From a virus (taxonomy: Duplodnaviria; Heunggongvirae; Uroviricota; Caudoviricetes): DNA of 64,000 nt. The DNA is taken from IMG/VR virus record IMGVR_UViG_3300029549_000273; one strand, written 5' to 3'. A program made the translations under genes and the position numbers. Position 1 is the stretch's first letter. Each line of letters begins with the position of its first letter. The notes beneath the pieces were generated by a model. The model did not search any database, was not told the origin of the DNA, and saw nothing but the letters and a program-made list of their open reading frames with translations. Positions 2,540 to 46,477 of this stretch are shown here, in pieces.

Positions 2540-4042
2540 TTACAAATTGCCCGTTATTTTTAGATTGATTTTCACCTGCTTTTTGTCGTCCACGATGATA
2601 GAATCTATAATTCTTCTGAGGTCCATATTGGTTGCAGATTGCAGGCTGAGAAACCGCTCAATTTCCGTCATCGCTTCATTCGTGATGCTTTCGATGGTCC
2701 TTTCCTGTGTGCGTTGTCCTTCGAGGAGAATAAGCTGGTCATCAATCACATTGATAGATTCGTTGATTTCTGCTGTCTTACTTTTCAACGCTTCCATCGT
2801 GATGACATCATTGGCGTACATCTCCATATACTTTTCCAACTTTGCCTTCAGCTTGACCTTTTTCGCCTCAAGCGTTTGAGCGTCTGGCTTACTTCCCTCC
2901 ACCGCATTTGCTTCCTTAAACTTGCGTGCGATTTCCTGAGCGATGGACTCTTTGTTAGAGACAACCTCTCTCAGGTAGGTGGAGAGTGTTTCAATTAGGT
3001 CATCCTCTCTGACGATTGTGTTGTTGGAACATCGTTTTGCGGTATACTGGTTGTTGGTTGGACATCGCCAGTAAATGTAATCGGAGTTTGGATAATGCGT
3101 CACTCTTCGTGAGAAGGCGCGTCCGCATTCCTTGCAGCGTATCAGGGTGCTGAATAAATGCCTGTTGCTGTATCGCCCAGTGAAATGCGTGTATTCGGTC
3201 GCGTATTGTTTTCTCCTCTGCTCCAAGATTTCCTGTGCCTGCTGGAAGCGTTCGGGCGTTATGATGGCCCATTCCGGGCGGTCATGGTGGTAATACTGTT
3301 CCTTCGGCAGCGCCTTCGTCGTTCCTTCCAGAAAGTCCACAACGGTATAGCGGTGATTGATGTAATGTCCGCTGTAAATTGGGTTCTCCAGTATTCTCCG
3401 TATGTTCCTCTGGTTCCAATCGTTACCAAACTTGGTTTTCATCTGCTTTTCGGCAAGTGTGATGGCGATAAGGCGGCATCCAAGTCCCTCGTCGATGTAG
3501 AGATGATAGATTTCTCTGACGACCTCCGCTTCCCTCTCGTTGATTTCCATAGTGAAGTTATCAATCCGGTCATATCCGAAAATTCGCGGCGGTACTCTTC
3601 CTTTCTTTGATGTAATATTCTTCCCGAACTTGACTCGCTTAGACAGGTTCGAACTTTCCTCCTGCGCCACAGCGCCGAGCAGCGTGATGACGAACTCCGA
3701 TTCGCCAAGCACTTTCTGGCTGTTATTGACAAAAATCACGTCGATTCCTCTCGATTTGAGCTGTCGAATCGACGTGAGTAGGTCTACAGTATTTCGTGCA
3801 AATCGTGAGACATCCTTGACCACAAGAAGGTCAAATAGCCCAAGTTTTGAGTCACTCAGCATTTTGTTGAACGCATCGCGCTTTTTGAGCTGTCTGCCTG
3901 TAATTCCTTCGTCCGTGTAGACATTGACCAGATGATGCCCATTCTGCTTTGCAAAATCCGAGAAAAACTCCATCTGATGCTCTAAGCTATCTAATTGCCG
4001 TTCCTCGTCGGTGCTAACTCGTGCGTACCCGCACATTCTCAT
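2540..4042 (-). CDS. Large serine recombinase (resolvase/invertase catalytic domain, recombinase domain and zinc ribbon)
   Basis: The N-terminal YARVSTDEERQLDSLEHQ carries the catalytic-Ser motif. A Cys cluster is present at CKECG...CPTNNQYTAKRC. The C-terminal coiled coil and 500-aa length are typical of phage/ICE serine integrases. A ribosome-binding site AAAGGAGG precedes the start. Confidence 0.88.
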   Translation of the reverse strand: MRMCGYARVSTDEERQLDSLEHQMEFFSDFAKQNGHHLVNVYTDEGITGRQLKKRDAFNKMLSDSKLGLFDLLVVKDVSRFARNTVDLLTSIRQLKSRGIDVIFVNNSQKVLGESEFVITLLGAVAQEESSNLSKRVKFGKNITSKKGRVPPRIFGYDRIDNFTMEINEREAEVVREIYHLYIDEGLGCRLIAITLAEKQMKTKFGNDWNQRNIRRILENPIYSGHYINHRYTVVDFLEGTTKALPKEQYYHHDRPEWAIITPERFQQAQEILEQRRKQYATEYTHFTGRYSNRHLFSTLIRCKECGRAFSRRVTHYPNSDYIYWRCPTNNQYTAKRCSNNTIVREDDLIETLSTYLREVVSNKESIAQEIARKFKEANAVEGSKPDAQTLEAKKVKLKAKLEKYMEMYANDVITMEALKSKTAEINESINVIDDQLILLEGQRTQERTIESITNEAMTEIERFLSLQSATNMDLRRIIDSIIVDDKKQVKINLKITGNL

Positions 4043-6405: not shown

Positions 6406-6482
6406 TGGAGCAACGTACCGGATTCGAACCGGCACCGCCGGTTTGGAAGACCGGAGTGCTGACCGTTAAACACCAACGCTGC
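6406..6482 (-). tRNA. tRNA-Gly(TCC), CCA encoded
   Basis: The reverse complement is GCAGCGTTGGTGTTTAACGGTCAGCACTCCGGTCTTCCAAACCGGCGGTGCCGGTTCGAATCCGGTACGTTGCTCCA. The anticodon loop is CTTCCAA. Confidence 0.75.
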
Positions 6483-6646
6483 TTGTTGCAGCTCCCGACA
6501 ATCGAGGCATCGTTTACTTGCGCGTCATGGGCGCTTTCGCAAGCCGCCGTGTATACCCACCGGCTCCGCGCCTGAATTGTCGGGCATTGTCATTCTTCGT
6601 GAGGCTTTCTGCACACGCTCACATCAGCCGAGAGCGACTCGGCAAC

Positions 6647-6723
6647 TGGTTTCGGGGGCGGGACTCGAACCCGCGTCAACCGGCTTATGAGGCCGGACTG
6701 GAACCATCTCCAGGCACCCCGAT
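6647..6723 (-). tRNA. tRNA-Met(CAT); the 1:72 pair is mismatched, so it could be the initiator type
   Basis: The reverse complement is ...CCGGCCTCATAAGCCGG...GCGGGTTCGAGTCCCGCCCCCGAAACCA. The anticodon loop is CTCATAA and the T-arm is GCGGG/CCCGC. Confidence 0.65.
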
Positions 6724-6732
6724 ATATATGGC

Positions 6733-6868
6733 AGGGACGGTTGGGAATCGAACCCACCACAAGCGGTTTAAGGTGAAGAGAGGACCGTCAACCGTTGCCG
6801 TGTGGAGTCGAACCACACGGCTTGGGGAATCGAACACCCGCCCAGGTCCTCTGGTCCGGGACCGTCCC
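6733..6868 (-). ncRNA. Atypical 136-nt tRNA-like structured element with three T-arm-like hairpins and a nested acceptor-like stem
   Basis: The outer stem pairs GGGACGG with CCGTCCC, and the inner stem pairs GAGGACC with GGTCCTC. The inner span is exactly 73 nt. T-loop-like motifs are GGTGTTCGATTCC, GTGTGGTTCGACTCCACAC and GGGTTCGATTCCCAA. The element cannot be parsed as one or two canonical tRNAs by eye. Confidence 0.3.
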
Positions 6869-6949
6869 GGATGGCATAGCCCCGCTTAGATTGTCACACA
6901 CTGATATCAGGCCGGACACATCCGAGCAGTGCAGTTTTCAGCGAGGCTA

Positions 6950-7026
6950 TGGTGATGCCAGCGAGGCTCGAACTCGCACTCTTCAGCGTGAAAGGCTGAT
7001 GACTTTACCAATTCGTCTATGGCACC
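6950..7026 (-). tRNA. tRNA-Glu(TTC), CCA encoded
   Basis: The reverse complement is GGTGCCATAGACGAATTGGTAAAGTCATCAGCCTTTCACGCTGAAGAGTGCGAGTTCGAGCCTCGCTGGCATCACCA. Confidence 0.65.
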
Positions 7027-7134
7027 GAAGGAAAGAGATATGGCTGGGCAAACGGCTTTTACTGCCCTGTCGGCACGGAATGGATACCGCCCCGGTGGGT
7101 TCTCACCACTATATTCTGTTAAGCCTATCTCTTG

Positions 7135-7210
7135 TGGCGGTCCCTGCTGGACTCGAACCAGCGACTTTCTGATTAACAGTCAGACGCTCTGCCAACTGAG
7201 CTAAGAGACC
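7135..7210 (-). tRNA. tRNA-Asn(GTT), CCA encoded
   Basis: The reverse complement is GGTCTCTTAGCTCAGTTGGCAGAGCGTCTGACTGTTAATCAGAAAGTCGCTGGTTCGAGTCCAGCAGGGACCGCCA. This is a canonical cloverleaf. Confidence 0.8.
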
Positions 7211-7217
7211 AAATAAA

Positions 7218-7289
7218 GTTGGAAGCCGGACTTGACCCGGCGACCTACGCATTACAAATGCGCTACGCTACCAACTGAGCTATGTCAGC
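7218..7289 (-). pseudogene. tRNA-Thr(TGT)-like remnant abutting tRNA-Asn; the acceptor stem cannot pair
   Basis: The 5' part GCTGACATAGCTCAGTTGG...GCGCATTTGTAATGCGT and the T-arm GCCGGGTCAAGTCCGGC resemble the Thr(CGT) gene at 8295..8370. The 3' strand TTCCAAC is not complementary to the 5' GCTGACA. Confidence 0.35.
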
Positions 7290-7401
7290 ATTTTGCTCGG
7301 CTCCCGGTCGCGGACGCCTTCCTGCCAGCCGCCCAGCACTTAGCAATGATGCCAGCCGCCAATCACTTAGCTTTTTGCGCTTCCTCGCCCGCATACCGGG
7401 A

Positions 7402-7488
7402 TGGTGCTATCGAAGGGACTTGAACCCTTACGCTGTTTCCGGCAGCAGATTTTGAGTCTGCCGTGTCTGCCAATTTCACCACGATAGC
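7402..7488 (-). tRNA. tRNA-Leu(CAA), long variable arm, CCA encoded
   Basis: The reverse complement is GCTATCGTGGTGAAATTGGCAGACACGGCAGACTCAAAATCTGCTGCCGGAAACAGCGTAAGGGTTCAAGTCCCTTCGATAGCACCA. Confidence 0.8.
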
Positions 7489-7499
7489 ATATTAAGAGA

Positions 7500-7586
7500 T
7501 GGTGGGCCGTGCTGGACTCGAACCAGCCGAGCCGTGAGGCACCAGATTTACAGTCTGGCCCGCTACCTGCTACGGAATACCGGCCC
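7500..7586 (-). tRNA. tRNA-Tyr(GTA), long variable arm, CCA encoded
   Basis: The reverse complement is GGGCCGGTATTCCGTAGCAGGTAGCGGGCCAGACTGTAAATCTGGTGCCTCACGGCTCGGCTGGTTCGAGTCCAGCACGGCCCACCA. Confidence 0.75.
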
Positions 7587-7616
7587 ATATTTGCCGCCAA
7601 AGGCGGCTTGGTGTGC

Positions 7617-8270
7617 TTACCCCCAATGCTGCTGCACAGGATTTCGGGAGCAATATTCCTTATATTGCTGCAATACTTCAACGCCACGCCCCGGTGAATC
7701 GGTTCTGTAGTCTACCGAATATGCAGCAAAGGCATCTCGTACTTTAGCGGCATATTCAGTGATAGTTCCCAGCATTTTGTCCTGCTGCTGACTCATGGCC
7801 GCCATCGTATCGCCAAACTTCATGGAATATTGGGCTTCCCATTCATCCACAAAATCTTCCTTGCTGGTGTTCCAGATATACCACGGCGGACATTCGCAAT
7901 CATCAGCCTTATAGAGCATATCCATGCCCCGCATTGAGTGGTTGATATAATCCATCAATGCGTGATACAATTCGCGGTATGCTGTGGCAAACGCCTGCCT
8001 ATTTTCATCGCCGTGTTGAAAGAGATACCCCGAAATCAAAACGCTGGCATAGCTTTGTTCAACAAAGCCGTACATATCAGCCAGAATTTGTTTGCGGCGG
8101 ACAAGTTCTTCTGTTTTCTCAGGAATATCCGACAGTTTTGGAATAGCATTAAGCACCACGCTTTTTCCGACTAATGCAGCTACCGCATCCGCCGCTCGTT
8201 CGTACCGATTGTCGTACCGATTGGTGACTTTTAATGCTTGCTTTAAGTCTGCTGAATCCAACATTGCCAT
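7617..8270 (-). CDS. Hypothetical protein (217 aa) embedded within the tRNA array
   Basis: Clean ORF with AAAGGAGA 6 nt before the ATG. It is flanked by tRNA-Tyr and tRNA-Thr. Confidence 0.55.
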   Translation of the reverse strand: MAMLDSADLKQALKVTNRYDNRYERAADAVAALVGKSVVLNAIPKLSDIPEKTEELVRRKQILADMYGFVEQSYASVLISGYLFQHGDENRQAFATAYRELYHALMDYINHSMRGMDMLYKADDCECPPWYIWNTSKEDFVDEWEAQYSMKFGDTMAAMSQQQDKMLGTITEYAAKVRDAFAAYSVDYRTDSPGRGVEVLQQYKEYCSRNPVQQHWG

Positions 8271-8294
8271 TCTCCTTTTCTAATGTTTTATTTC

Positions 8295-8370
<76 letters not shown>

Positions 8371-8389
8371 ATTTTTCTCTTTGGGAGAA

Positions 8390-8464
8390 TGGCTGAGATG
8401 GCTGGATTCGAACCAGCGAGTCAGGGAGTCAAAGTCCCATGCCTTACCACTTGGCTACACCTCA
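8390..8464 (-). tRNA. tRNA-Gln(TTG), CCA encoded
   Basis: The reverse complement is TGAGGTGTAGCCAAGTGGTAAGGCATGGGACTTTGACTCCCTGACTCGCTGGTTCGAATCCAGCCATCTCAGCCA. Confidence 0.7.
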
Positions 8465-43187: not shown

Positions 43188-44582
43188 TTATTTTTTTGCC
43201 TCGGCTGCTGCATGGGGAAGCCGCACCCAGCCGCCCTTATGACGAACAAGCTGGATTTTCTTCATGCTGACCATAAGCGGCTTTCCATCCGTGAGTAGGC
43301 TTAATGCCCTGCCATAGCTGGAGCAGCCCTTGGAAACGTATTTGCGATTGCCGTAGACCACGATATCTCCCGGCTGCATGGCATATCTCTGCTTTCTGGT
43401 CGAGGTTCGGCCCTTTGACTTCTTACAGCCACGGAACCGGCGCAGATTTTCGCCGTCAAGGTTATGATTGCGGTTCGTCCTGCCGGAGGACAGCTCGTTG
43501 CCAGAACGGATAACTCCCTTTTCCCGTGTGTCGTAATATTTGGCGTCATAGAATTTGGATAGGACTCTGTTGTTTCGCCTGTATTTCTGGAAGACCTCTG
43601 TTTCGCATCTGGCTTCCGGACGCAGCTCGCCCATGCAGTAGGCATCCGTAGCGCAGGAATACGGGAGGCCGAGGTTGGTGCGGACGCGCTTGGAGATGAC
43701 GCCATAGGTCATGTGTACTTCCGCAACACCCTGGAAGCGAGCCATCGCACGCTGATAGAGAATCCAGCGCACGCTATTCATAAACGCTTCGCCGGTATAT
43801 TTCCGCAGAGGCTTATCGAAGCCCCACAGCTTCCCGCCCTCCTTGTGATTGGCAGGTGTGTTGCACTTCTCGCAGCAGGTCGCAAGCTCCCTCATGCTGT
43901 TCCCATGCAGACCCTTCCAGTAGTAGGCGTGATGGACATGAAGGATAGCGCCGTCTTTCAGGCCTCTCTTGCAATACACACAGGTATAGTGGTCCCGTTC
44001 AAAGACCGCTTCCCGCAGCGTATCGTAGCCGTACTGCGGTCCATGCTGATAGTCCTTGCCCTGCGGGACAGGTTCCCCTGCCTCCAGCGCCGCAAGGAGC
44101 TGTGTATCGTATGTCGCGGCCTTGATAAAGACATCCGTGACAGGCATGACAGACAGATAACGGGAGATAATATCCAGGTGCCGCTCCACCTTGTTGTCCA
44201 GAGACGGAGCAATCCAACCGGGCTTTTTGCCTGATACACGGTTATTGAACCGTGCAGCCCGATACCGCAGGCGGTTTCTGCGCGTCCGGCGGTACGCTCG
44301 GCAGTCGTCATGGCGAGAGCGCTCGTTCGTGAGCATATCATATTGCTGCGATACGACCTCTTTTGCCTTTGTCTTAATGCTGACGCCGATATGCTCATAT
44401 CCGGTGCCGACGCACATTTCGATGGGCTGGGTATAGGTACTGGTATCGTAGGTCAGCTGGATGGTGAACGGGTTCCGCTTCGCAATCACAGCGCGGCCAT
44501 CCTTCAACAGATGGCGCACTTTGCCGTAATTTTCGGTCGGCATCAGCCGTTCACCGTTTGCACTTAAAACACATACTGGCAT
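43188..44582 (-). CDS. iscB: IscB-family (OMEGA-type) RRXRR/HNH protein with apparently degenerate RuvC catalytic residues
   Basis: The N-terminus MPVCVLSANGERLMPTENYGKVRHLLKDGRAVIAKRNPFTIQLTY is a PLMP/RRXRR domain. The arginine-rich bridge helix is RAYRRTRRNRLRYRAARFNNR. The HNH motif is CVYCKRG...HVHHAYYWKG...CCEKCN. The IscB-like C-terminus is GDIVVYGNRKYVSKGCSSYGRALSLLTDGKP. Aligned against an IscB sequence recalled from memory, the RuvC-I Asp is Gly, the RuvC-II Glu is Lys, and the RuvC-III His is Cys. Confidence 0.6.
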   Translation of the reverse strand: MPVCVLSANGERLMPTENYGKVRHLLKDGRAVIAKRNPFTIQLTYDTSTYTQPIEMCVGTGYEHIGVSIKTKAKEVVSQQYDMLTNERSRHDDCRAYRRTRRNRLRYRAARFNNRVSGKKPGWIAPSLDNKVERHLDIISRYLSVMPVTDVFIKAATYDTQLLAALEAGEPVPQGKDYQHGPQYGYDTLREAVFERDHYTCVYCKRGLKDGAILHVHHAYYWKGLHGNSMRELATCCEKCNTPANHKEGGKLWGFDKPLRKYTGEAFMNSVRWILYQRAMARFQGVAEVHMTYGVISKRVRTNLGLPYSCATDAYCMGELRPEARCETEVFQKYRRNNRVLSKFYDAKYYDTREKGVIRSGNELSSGRTNRNHNLDGENLRRFRGCKKSKGRTSTRKQRYAMQPGDIVVYGNRKYVSKGCSSYGRALSLLTDGKPLMVSMKKIQLVRHKGGWVRLPHAAAEAKK

Positions 44583-44616: not shown

Positions 44617-44775
44617 CCTGTCATTCGGTGGGGGACGTCAACTGCGTGATGCTCCGTTTGCGGGGGGGGCTGCGGTATAGCTACCTGTCATTTGGTGGGG
44701 GACGTCAACCTGTCAATCCGGATTGCAATTTAATCGTACGGTATAGCTCCCTGTCATTTGGTGGGGGACGTCAAC
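44617..44775 (-). repeat. CRISPR-like mini-array of three 26-bp direct repeats with 41- and 40-nt unique spacers, abutting and overlapping the iscB start
   Basis: The repeat CCTGTCAT(T/C)TGGTGGGGGACGTCAAC is at 44617-44642, 44684-44709 and 44750-44775. The spacers share only a terminal cggtatagct. No cas1/cas2 is present. Confidence 0.45.
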
Positions 44776-44804: not shown

Positions 44805-45105
44805 ACGACAAACCAAAAAGGTAAATCAGCACTTACCGCTCACGCGGCGTTACTGTGGTCCACATCGCCAAGGATATACCGGGTTTGATGGTACGCACAC
44901 TTCTCCTTCCCCTCAGAGATGTTTAATACGCACCCGCAGAGCGGCGGACTTGTGGAGTATCCGCCGGTGCCTATGTATTCCGGCATATCGTAGCCTTGCG
45001 GCTGAGGCTTATTGACGAGGCTTACTCTCCTTGCGGGTCATAAGCCACACCAAATGACAGGAGGCTGAGCCGGAGTTTCCGGCGCACCCGCCCGCCATTC
45101 GGCGG
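44805..45105 (-). ncRNA. Structured roughly 300-nt RNA element (copy A) with GNRA-capped hairpins, an anti-repeat complementary to the mini-array repeat, and a 3' intrinsic terminator; candidate omega-RNA/tracr-like RNA
   Basis: On the minus strand it contains CCCGCCgaatGGCGGG, GCCGGaaacuCCGGC, AGCCgcaaGGCU, and the segment CCUGUCAUUUGGUG, which is complementary to the repeat CACCAAAUGACAGG. It ends with the hairpin GGUAAgugcugauUUACC followed by UUUUUGGUUUG. An identical copy is at 46160-46465. Confidence 0.4.
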
Positions 45106-45112
45106 GGTAAAG

Positions 45113-45463
45113 CTAAAGAGCAGCGTCCTGATTGACAGGACATTCGAGACTCATGTTTTTTCTCTTCTCACAGGACTCTGCCTGCGACCACAAGCTGTTT
45201 GGCAGATTGAGCACCGTTACGAGGACATCCCCGGCAAACAGATAGACGTGCCGGTGATATACTCGAATATTGTTGATGGTTTTGTTTTTGAAGCGGATGG
45301 ATGTAAGGTATCCATTCAGGTGGCCTCTGGTCTCCGAGTGCTTCACGCCAAAGTCAAAGGCTTTCTGTGCATTGCGCACGGCTGCTCTTTTGCCGAGACC
45401 AGCACGCTGTTTTGTACGCTTCCTCGCGTGTTTACTTACCTGCGCTGACATGGTTCGTATCAT
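45113..45463 (-). CDS. Hypothetical basic protein (about 115 aa)
   Basis: The ORF MIRTMSAQVSKHARKRTKQRAG... is Lys/Arg-rich. The start is uncertain and it overlaps its neighbour. Confidence 0.3.
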   Translation of the reverse strand: MIRTMSAQVSKHARKRTKQRAGLGKRAAVRNAQKAFDFGVKHSETRGHLNGYLTSIRFKNKTINNIRVYHRHVYLFAGDVLVTVLNLPNSLWSQAESCEKRKNMSLECPVNQDAAL

Positions 45464-46034
45464 TCTGATGGACAGACACCGCGTTGCGATTGGCCTGCCG
45501 AATGAGCGACAGGATATCGTCCAGCCTGTTTCCGCCAAAGTACACAAGTAATGGCTGATACAGCGCCAATACCGCCACAACAAAGCAGACGGCATCAGCA
45601 GTACCCGCAGGGAAATCCGCCCGTGCCATAACTACAGAATACAGGCTTGCCAGCAGTACAATCGCCGCTGTGAGGGAAAGAACGGTATGGAAGAATAAAG
45701 CGAGCGCCTTACTCACAGCACCGCAGTTGGCGAACTTCTTCTCCACGAAATACTTCGCAGCCGGCAAGCCCACCAGGACTGCCAGCAGCACAAGCTGGAT
45801 ACCAAGAGAGACTTTGGGAATCTGGAACTCCCGGCTCTGGAAGAACAGCGTCACGCGGCTGCCGACGTTCAGTGTTTCAATGAGTAGGAATAGCCACAGA
45901 ACCGCAAGCACCAGCGGTCTCGGCGCATTGAGCTTGCCCACGGCGAAATCGCACAACACCCATAGCACAATGAGTACCGCAAGCTGCGGCATCATGAGCC
46001 GCCCTAATTCCAGAGCAAAACTAACAAAAGTCAT
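45432..46034 (-). CDS. Hypothetical polytopic membrane protein (200 aa)
   Basis: Multiple hydrophobic segments. It is flanked by the two copies of the 300-bp RNA element. Confidence 0.5.
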   Translation of the reverse strand: MTFVSFALELGRLMMPQLAVLIVLWVLCDFAVGKLNAPRPLVLAVLWLFLLIETLNVGSRVTLFFQSREFQIPKVSLGIQLVLLAVLVGLPAAKYFVEKKFANCGAVSKALALFFHTVLSLTAAIVLLASLYSVVMARADFPAGTADAVCFVVAVLALYQPLLVYFGGNRLDDILSLIRQANRNAVSVHQNDTNHVSAGK

Positions 46035-46063
46035 TGTTCATTCCTCCTGAAAAATTTACCGAT

Positions 46064-46135
46064 TCCTGTCATTTGGTGGGGGACGTCAATCCTGCGGGCC
46101 AGATGATACTCCCTGTCATTTGCTGTGGCACATCA
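46064..46135 (-). repeat. Second mini-array of two repeats (one degenerate) of the CCTGTCATTTGGTGGGGGACGTCAA motif
   Basis: The motifs cctgtcatttggtgggggacgtcaat and cctgtcatttgctgtggcacatcaac are separated by 21 nt. Confidence 0.35.
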
Positions 46136-46159
46136 ACGATTAAAAAGACGAGAATTCCC

Positions 46160-46465
46160 CTACTTGAGAAAACCAAAGATTTGGTAAATCAGCACTTACC
46201 GCTCACGCGGCGTTACTGTGGTCCACATCGCCAAGGATATACCGGGTTTGATGGTACGCACACTTCTCCTTCCCCTCAGAGATGTTTAATACGCACCCGC
46301 AGAGCAGCGGACTTGTGGAGCATCCACCGGTGCCTATGGATTCCGGCATATCGTAGCCTTGCGGCTGAGGCTTATTGACGAGGCTTACTCCCCTTGCGGG
46401 TCATAAGCCACACCAAATGACAGGAGGCTGGGTCGGAGTTTCCGGCGCACCCGCCCGCCATTCGG
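46160..46465 (-). ncRNA. Second copy (copy B) of the roughly 300-nt structured RNA element, more than 95% identical to copy A
   Basis: Near-identical to 44805-45105 with a handful of substitutions. It is the same terminator-capped structured element. Confidence 0.4.
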
Positions 46466-46477
46466 CGGGAGTGCAGA

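Follow-up and report, generated by a model that had tools for sequence, protein, structure and literature searches.

Cas9 is held to descend from IscB, and IscB loci provided with arrays are known in small number only. In type II CRISPR systems, Cas9 is guided by a dual RNA formed by the CRISPR RNA (crRNA) and the trans-activating CRISPR RNA (tracrRNA), the repeats measuring 36 nucleotides (nt) and the spacers about 30 nt. The subject of this report is a stretch of 64,000 nt of viral DNA (the window; IMG/VR record IMGVR_UViG_3300029549_000273) and, within it, an element at positions 46054 to 46471 of the minus strand, upstream of an iscB gene. With a probability of roughly 0.56, the element is taken here to duplicate the guide-RNA module that serves a CRISPR-associated IscB encoded by the phage, this second copy being an orphan that supplies guides in trans. 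In the CRISPR-associated IscB systems that have been described, an omega RNA scaffold bears an anti-repeat, a short array is adjacent and a repeat:anti-repeat duplex replaces the closed hairpin of the omega RNA (PMC11610941; DelIscB in PMC12660989). The locus of the window follows this plan, with a compact IscB, an upstream non-coding RNA made of omega scaffold and anti-repeat, an adjacent array and a duplex in place of the hairpin. It departs from the published cases in that it is carried by an Oscillospiraceae phage or prophage, in that the array is located 3' of the tracr-like omega RNA, between this RNA and the open reading frame (ORF), and in that the module occurs twice, evolving in concert and bracketing cargo genes. 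Moreover, the intact RuvC site of those systems is not found here, the effector having lost three RuvC catalytic residues to become HNH-only. The locus may already be listed in the 2021 catalogue of Altae-Tran et al., which was compared through secondary sources.

Other known systems share part of these traits. With type II Cas9 the locus has in common the dual-RNA logic, the 36-nt repeats, the spacers of about 30 nt and the presence of spacers that are shared at one array end and unique at the other, but the effector is an IscB of 464 amino acids (aa), the tracr part is an omega RNA of 250-300 nt and no cas1, cas2 or csn2 was recognised in the window. Very short arrays without adaptation genes, with repeats of host type and relying on host Cas effectors, occur in viruses and are thought to serve inter-virus competition. 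The arrays described here are likewise very short and placed in a viral genome without adaptation genes, whereas the effector and the tracr-like RNA are phage-encoded. Virus-borne mini-CRISPR arrays have been reviewed (PMC11656645). Stand-alone (orphan) omega RNAs have been reported in IscB-carrying genomes (PMC11610941), and the omega RNA copy of the element, copy B, resembles them in having no IscB ORF directly after it, so that it would act in trans; it differs from them in that only about 1.4-1.5 kb of the same strand separate it from its IscB, in its guide-less tracr type and in its own mini-array. Relatives inactive in RuvC and active in HNH have been described as well, namely a phage Cas9 with tracrRNA and an IscB beside Cas12 (PMC10910872). 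The loss of the RuvC site with conservation of HNH is common to all of them and, in the case of the phage Cas9, also the phage origin and the tracr-like RNA; however, that Cas9 is array-less and has been proposed to hijack host crRNAs, while the phage of the window has its own variable arrays and its effector is an IscB. Finally, the TldR proteins of prophages are nuclease-dead TnpB repressors with a single fixed guide (PMC10705468). The IscB of the window is, like TldR, a prophage-borne relative of a transposon nuclease with inactivated RuvC, located beside a guide RNA and non-transposon genes. Unlike TldR, which has no nuclease domain left and a fixed, promoter-matching guide, it keeps HNH, and its guides vary and have no 10-12-nt seed match in the window apart from one weak 10-mer.

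The element (module B) is made of copy B followed by array B, and its counterpart next to iscB (module A) of copy A followed by array A. Read 5' to 3', with all genes on the minus strand, the order is 123-aa gene, copy B, array B, membrane-protein gene, basic-protein gene, copy A, array A and iscB. The copies were aligned base by base and are near-identical, as the initial annotation of this DNA had stated: copy A (45106 to 44820) and copy B (46469 to 46183) align without gaps over 287 nt with seven mismatches (97.6% identity, offset 1363 nt), and the common block begins 45 nt upstream of the anti-repeat. Two of the differences fall inside a helix, both being C to U changes that keep G·U pairs. 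The helices are those of the Rfam family HEARO (RF02033), the omega RNA of IscB, which matches copy B with 93.7 bits and copy A with 91.8 bits against a threshold of 83. The match of copy B extends from 46435 to 46216, lacks model positions 1-5, which are the 5' strand of helix P1, and has the P1 pairs flagged as non-canonical; in copy A most of the 5' domain of the model is skipped as a local deletion. Copy B is therefore not a single molecule with a 5' guide and P1 closed in cis, as the canonical relatives are. Neither is it placed directly upstream of a same-strand IscB ORF, two unrelated ORFs coming before iscB, while copy A is so placed save for the intervening array.

The missing strands are present in the array repeats. 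The UUGACG of the repeat pairs with the CGUCAA of the scaffold, which constitutes P1, and the stretch CCCACCAAAUGACAGG of the repeat pairs with the anti-repeat CCUGUCAUUUGGUGUGG at the 5' end of the scaffold, giving the hairpin which, in an ordinary omega RNA, has a closed form. Cofolding of the repeat with the tracr 5' region yielded -49.5 kcal/mol, versus -31.4 +/- 2.5 kcal/mol for shuffled repeats, and the predicted structure is that of the HEARO 5' domain, with P1, an intermolecular hairpin a and hairpin b; the duplex would comprise 15-16 base pairs (bp) of repeat:anti-repeat plus the 7 bp of P1. The degenerate first repeat of array B can still pair with the anti-repeat and the P1 strand (-45.3 kcal/mol), and in the minimum-energy fold of the 418-nt module B the anti-repeat is paired with the last repeat (z = -4.2). 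Both copies are thus, as far as their sequence tells, omega RNAs in a split, tracrRNA-like form, devoid of a guide of their own and of the P1 5' strand. According to the fold, the repeat restores the omega RNA 5' domain and would set the preceding spacer at the usual guide position. The nearest homologues with an intact RuvC (50-59% identity) have an ordinary, closed, single-molecule omega RNA directly upstream and no array, which indicates that the split form is the derived one. Furthermore, the 5' sequence of their omega RNAs (GUCAAUAACCCCACCC...) resembles the array repeat; hence the repeats would be multiplied omega RNA 5' ends and the scaffold an omega RNA turned into a tracrRNA.

The arrays were compared among related loci, which comprise six IMG/VR contigs with an IscB 98-100% identical, one genome, the helicase-anchored locus L015 and 15 human-gut metagenome loci containing the exact anti-repeat. 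The 25-nt motif CCTGTCATTTGGTGGGGGACGTCAA, of which copies had been noticed after copy B on the minus strand, occurs at four sites of the window with up to three mismatches (44617, 44684, 44750 and 46065), versus none expected from shuffles, and a fifth, degenerate copy at 46112-46136 has four mismatches. After copy B the motif copies amount to one perfect and one degenerate repeat, 22 nt apart, and the motif itself turned out to be part of a longer unit, in which (G)TTGACGTCCCCCACCAAATGACAGG and NAGCTATACC add up to about 36 nt; the spacers measure about 30 nt. Array A contains three repeats in the window and at least nine in L003, recurring every 66 nt or so, and its spacers vary among relatives even though IscB is 98-100% identical. 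Across 20 related loci, which come from gut metagenomes, viral contigs and one Oscillospiraceae prophage, 17 spacer families provide 32 ordered spacer pairs with no order conflict, and the most widely shared spacer of array A is always the terminal, iscB-proximal one. To judge from this order, array A is a polarised CRISPR-type array with internal deletions. In array B the two repeats seldom change; L024, however, has four of them there, with two extra spacers of 31 nt, and a single repeat in array A. Spacer S2 of array A (44642-44683, minus strand) shows variation of the slippage type, with a run of seven or eight C among relatives and a 3' end that reads CGCAG or CGCACAG.

The IscB of the locus is identified by Pfam PF14239 (RRXRR, E 5.8e-41) and by phrog_119 (HNH endonuclease), matches solved IscB chains at E 1e-30 and contains the PLMP/RRXRR N-terminal region, the split RuvC fold and the HNH insert; its protein cluster has about 2,000 member sequences. 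The mechanical ORF start (44624) falls inside the last array repeat, and the most likely start is the ATG at 44582 (MPVCVLSANGERLMP), to which the relatives, a ribosome-binding site (GAAAGGAAAAAATAAGATG) and the conservation of the N-terminus all point. Array B ends 1.48 kb from this start, and not 1.3 kb as given initially. Catalytic positions were read from the residues established for OgeuIscB. The aspartate of RuvC-I is replaced by glycine (CVGTG), the glutamate of RuvC-II by lysine (VFIKAA) and the histidine of RuvC-III by cysteine (SCATDAYC), at sites where these residues are conserved in 113, 112 and 114 of 117 aligned sequences, respectively. The last RuvC aspartate, the HNH histidines (117/117) and the zinc-binding cysteines are retained. 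The set of residues of an effector competent for double-strand cleavage, RuvC D/E/H/D plus the HNH histidine, is consequently incomplete, and with HNH kept, nicking of the target strand or mere binding, rather than a double-strand break, would be expected. IscB is, in short, probably a natural nickase or binder. The ratio of non-synonymous to synonymous differences (pN/pS) of iscB within the clade, 0.09-0.22 in pairs with more than ten synonymous differences, indicates that the protein is maintained by purifying selection.

The related loci differ in the number and state of the modules. Two modules together with the cassette formed by the membrane-protein and basic-protein genes are present in the window and in L002, L004, L013, L023, L025, L028 and L030. 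Module B is reduced to a scar, while cassette and module A are present, in L020, where the scar consists of CTCCCGCCGAAT joined to AAATGACAGGAATCAGTAAAT, and in L027, where the position of module B (about 370-480) is occupied by a scar and the first 85 nt or so of a different, canonical omega RNA (GTCAATGTAACCCCCACGGCTGAAGCCGGGGGCTTGTGG...), preceded by CTCCCGCCGAATAA. Two different types of omega RNA have occupied this intergenic site. In L022 and L031 there is no cassette, and a single chimeric B/A omega RNA comes directly after the 123-aa gene. L015 has the cassette and no module B; module A and most of iscB are deleted there, save for the 5' hairpin block and 83 nt at the end of iscB. In L034, module B carries an A-type leader. 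The scars and the chimeras imply that the two-module state preceded the single-module and module-B-scar variants (L020, L027, L022, L031). The helicase relatives L017-L019 are more distant and have a different gene content, so that they add nothing to this comparison.

Comparison of lineages having both copies gives an indication of their age. The proportion of synonymous differences (pS) in the cassette goes from about 0.1 in the membrane gene to 0.39 in the basic gene, while omega B differs between the same lineages at 0-6 positions of 306 nt (Poisson P down to 1e-10 or lower). Across lineages A and B are at least 96.5% identical (3-10 mismatches in 287 nt), and among 16 copies compared 16 of the 287 columns vary. 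Alleles of the A and B types form mosaics, and derived states common to the two copies of one genome occur in L023 and L030; mosaicism and homogenisation within a genome point to gene conversion between A and B. Since the copies are alike in spite of the diverged cassette genes, they are old copies subjected to constraint and homogenisation, and the recent duplication contemplated in the initial annotation is not upheld.

The module is restricted to the iscB locus. A degenerate 22-nt repeat pattern was found in six of 2.9 million viral contigs of IMG/VR, all of them with iscB, the exact 25-mer being present on four of the six, and the 15 metagenome matches of the anti-repeat are, without exception, in the same phage locus. 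Every copy found in public collections belongs to this iscB locus. Together with the HEARO matches, this agrees with the earlier proposal of an iscB-linked guide-RNA module; dispersed copies unrelated to iscB, which would have indicated a generic repetitive element, were found neither in the viral contigs nor among the metagenome matches.

The preferred reading, an orphan guide-RNA module acting in trans, builds on the identity of the parts, their complementarity, the turnover of the arrays, the conservation of omega B, the recombination between A and B and the linkage to the iscB locus, all of which are apparent in the data. Read-through or local transcription would produce tracr-omega RNA and pre-crRNA from both modules, and repeat:anti-repeat duplexes would form in cis or after processing. 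The single IscB, encoded about 1.5 kb downstream of module B, would then be loaded in trans, module B adding one or two crRNAs and to the dosage of tracr-omega RNA. B and A recombine, being direct repeats, with the consequence that the copies are homogenised and the two-gene cassette can be lost and, in principle, regained.

A number of observations weigh against this reading. None of the spacers has a protospacer that could be detected in IMG/VR, in GenBank phages, in the related loci or in the window, host genomes and most metagenomes being unsearched. The window and the related loci were searched with the repeat-proximal 20 nt of all spacers (up to 3-4 mismatches); the other searches used all spacers joined in blastn against GenBank phages, exact 17-24-mers of four spacers against IMG/VR and 10-12-nt seeds against the window. 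They returned just the arrays themselves and chance-level matches, with nothing beyond 17-18-mers, among them L011 (a giant-virus metagenome-assembled genome) and L012. The lone weak seed match in the window is that of the last 10 nt of spacer S1 (GATTGACAGG) at 45118-45139 of the plus strand (10-mer at 45130), which reaches 13/16 on extension and falls in the hairpin with which the basic gene ends at its 3' side, module A being about 60 nt downstream; 0.12 matches are expected by chance, TGACAGG is common to the site and the repeat, and the match is probably fortuitous. No recognisable cas1, cas2, cas4 or csn2 was detected in the 64-kb window, which covers part of the phage only and not the host, in a PADLOC scan of the 66 non-helicase ORFs at E <= 1e-5; a scan of all 70 ORFs matched 79 families, and none of these genes is among the 25 that were listed. 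Nor could a promoter be assigned, a sigma-70 consensus scan being at chance level (three found versus 2.5 expected) and its sole match inside array B being weak. Spacer SB of array B is just 22 nt long and has four segregating sites across modules B, and so looks less constrained than the omega RNA. Finally, module B is dispensable in some lineages, with only scars in L020 and L027 and none in L015, and gene conversion from a selected omega A could keep omega B conserved without any function of its own.

The last points lead to the alternative that survives best, though it is an unlikely one: copy B would be a functionless duplicate of module A, originated by illegitimate or homologous recombination and kept only by conversion from A. 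The absence or scarring of module B in L015, L020 and L027, the minimal array B with its degenerate first repeat and truncated, variable 22-nt spacer, and the gene conversion demonstrated between A and B would all be accounted for. However, a functionless copy would not be expected to stay near-invariant at omega B while both flanks diverge strongly, nor to retain two array repeats competent for pairing. The enlargement of array B with full-length spacers in L024 and the fact that the two in-helix A/B differences are C to U changes preserving G·U pairs also speak against it.

An appreciably less probable possibility is that the omega RNAs are mainly recombination handles, an excised circle with omega RNA, array and the two genes integrating into related single-omega phages so that the genes hitch-hike with the IscB locus. 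The cassette-less, single-module genomes with a chimeric B/A omega RNA (L022, L031), the A-type leader of module B in L034 and the highly divergent cassette alleles within otherwise similar loci are in line with it. Yet only losses are documented, with no circle junction or integration event seen, no recombinase is linked to the unit, and the pairing-competent array of B would be left unexplained. The related suggestion, made in the initial annotation, that the copies form the ends of a composite mobile unit holds only insofar as the direct repeats mediate loss of the cassette, as in the chimeras of L022 and L031. The locus shows no sign of being a transposon of the IS200/IS605 type (ISC) or a composite one: among the eight ORFs at 40.8-51.4 kb there is no Pfam match to a transposase, no target-site duplication or inverted ends were found, and what is repeated, in direct orientation, is an RNA gene. 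L015 was considered as the "empty site" of a transposon and rejected, since on its A side there is a deletion, with TCAG microhomology where the ends meet, that leaves 83 nt at the end of iscB; the B side, though clean, shows no target-site duplication at module B.

Two other explanations are very improbable. According to the first, module B would be a cis-acting 5' leader of the membrane and basic genes, cleavage of the duplex or binding of IscB setting the stability or translation of the messenger RNA, and module A would act likewise on iscB. Both modules end 11-35 nt ahead of the ribosome-binding site of the next same-strand ORF, repeat 2 of array B being 11 nt upstream of the ribosome-binding stretch TTTTTCAGGAGG of the membrane gene (Shine-Dalgarno GGAGG), and long-range pairing of anti-repeat and repeat would enclose the omega RNA just upstream of that site. 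Nevertheless, the same genes persist without module B in L015, L020 and L027, and no regulatory element was identified. The second, given as little weight, is counter-defence by mimicry, in which the extra tracr-like RNA and the cleavage-impaired effector would sequester host crRNAs with a matching repeat. Sequestration of crRNAs has been proposed for a phage RuvC-dead Cas9 with tracrRNA (PMC10910872), and the phage context, the RuvC-dead, HNH-intact effector, the two tracr-like copies and an array geometry like that of type II (36-nt repeats, 30-nt spacers) would fit. Against it, arrays whose spacers turn over in an ordered way are present in the phage itself, and the 15 metagenome matches, all in the phage locus, contain no host locus with repeat or anti-repeat. 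As for the structured 3' untranslated region or terminator cassette reused after two genes, another of the initial suggestions, it can practically be dismissed: each copy does follow a stop codon, as had been noted, at a distance of 7-9 nt, and opens with a GC-rich hairpin, but this hairpin is itself repeat-derived and has no U-tract, the scan called nothing like a terminator in A or B (the closest site, 45142 to 45124, is within the basic gene), and the element matches a specific RNA family and has a pairing-competent anti-repeat.

The coordinates of the parts of the locus are collected in Table 1. The hairpin that opens the copies (46454-46469 and 45091-45106, minus strand) resembles the array repeat, as can be seen by comparison with CCCGCCGAATGACGGG in a degenerate repeat of L003. 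In L020 it is the deletion endpoint, where it is joined to the last repeat. This hairpin may be the remnant of an ancestral repeat formerly located 5' of the anti-repeat.

Table 1. Features of the iscB locus in the window, in 5' to 3' order on the minus strand
Feature	Position	Strand	Family or remark
123-aa gene upstream of copy B	46849 to 46478	minus	ORF
Whole module B (omega RNA + array)	46471 to 46054, 418 nt	minus	
5' part of module B	46428..46471	minus	counterpart in copy A at 45106 to 45065
Repeat-like hairpin CCCGCCGAATGGCGGG opening copy B	46469 to 46454	minus	resembles array repeat
Second small hairpin, 5' part of module B	46447 to 46434	minus	
Omega RNA copy B, tracrRNA-like form	46183..46427	minus	Rfam HEARO RF02033 match
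Anti-repeat of copy B	46424 to 46408	minus	
Hairpin b of copy B	46407 to 46392	minus	
P1 3' strand CGTCAAT of copy B, rest of scaffold after it	46380 to 46374	minus	
Leader, omega B to array B, ending GGGGAATTCTCGTCTTTTTAATCG	46138..46182	minus	identical leader ahead of array A in L003, L020
Array B repeat 1, degenerate, TTGATGTGCCACAGCAAATGACAGG, 4 mismatches vs consensus	46112..46136	minus	
Array B spacer SB, 22 nt, GAGTATCATCTGGCCCGCAGGA	46090..46111	minus	in every module B examined
Array B repeat 2, perfect consensus	46065..46089	minus	
Bracketed gene 1, 200-aa polytopic membrane protein	45432..46034	minus	ORF
Bracketed gene 2, 112-aa basic protein	45113..45451	minus	phrog_16724
Omega RNA copy A + its 5' hairpin block	44820..45106	minus	HEARO match
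Anti-repeat of copy A	45061 to 45045	minus	
P1 3' strand of copy A	45017 to 45011	minus	
Array A, three repeats (44774 to 44750, 44708 to 44684, 44641 to 44617)	44617..44774	minus	intervening stretches 41 and 42 nt
iscB, 464 aa	43188..44582	minus	Pfam RRXRR, phrog_119

The two genes flanked by the copies are, as described initially, those of a membrane protein (200 aa) and a small basic protein (112 aa). No Pfam or PHROG family was matched by the former, and its gene occurs in L015 without either omega/array module. The latter belongs to phrog_16724, a family of unknown function (E 1.2e-16), and has 12 homologues with 74-99% identity, several of them partial, the close ones including a protein named from Oscillibacter sp. 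MCC667. Divergent alleles between similar loci show 30/77 synonymous and 33 non-synonymous differences in the basic gene, and 16/154 synonymous and 18 non-synonymous differences in the membrane gene. Both evolve fast for genes inside a conserved locus.

Features of a phage or prophage are evident in the window: the genes are all on one strand and include a serine integrase, nine transfer RNAs (tRNAs), sigma factors, a RecE-like exonuclease and a tail lysin. The nine tRNA genes are clustered at 6412-8464 (minus strand; Rfam tRNA, 30-73 bits), near the serine integrase gene (2540-4042), a combination typical of large temperate phages. A 99%-identical iscB locus with both omega/array modules is contained in a 571-kb contig of Oscillospiraceae bacterium CM18GR_63. 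Up to two further canonical IscB elements are located at other sites in related phages (L015 1244-2834 and 15989-17564; L005 6685-6908), with HEARO matches of 98-124 bits each, and the window has neither; after each of those of L015 comes an IscB of 430 aa whose GVDAGSK motif is intact. IscB elements seem to find a hotspot in this phage lineage. Among the ORFs of the window PADLOC gave single matches to MzaA (1.1e-37), PDC-M11B (1.6e-11) and a viperin-like pVip (1.5e-06), and many models of the GajB type are matched by the two helicases of the UvrD/RecD type; genes for defence or counter-defence may thus be present in the phage.

The locus offers, in natural population data, a view of the early-stage behaviour of an array-bearing IscB system, in which the repeats are still recognisable as omega RNA 5' ends and the scaffold as a tracrRNA, spacers are gained and lost, and the guide module has been duplicated, homogenised and used as a recombination substrate. 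A more far-reaching proposal, advanced here only tentatively, is that a gut phage lineage has independently made of the omega RNA a working CRISPR-like system, with multiplied repeats, a tracr scaffold, polarised spacer gain without phage cas1/cas2 and an HNH-only nickase, serving phage competition or nick-driven homing, and that module B is a functional extra guide locus that also shuffles neighbour genes. The loss of RuvC residues, combined with purifying selection, suggests that a phage very common in the human gut encodes a natural nickase guided by RNA. If its function were confirmed, the locus would provide a compact natural nickase of dual-RNA design, a test case for spacer acquisition without linked cas1-cas2 and an example of phages using RNA-guided nicking against their competitors.

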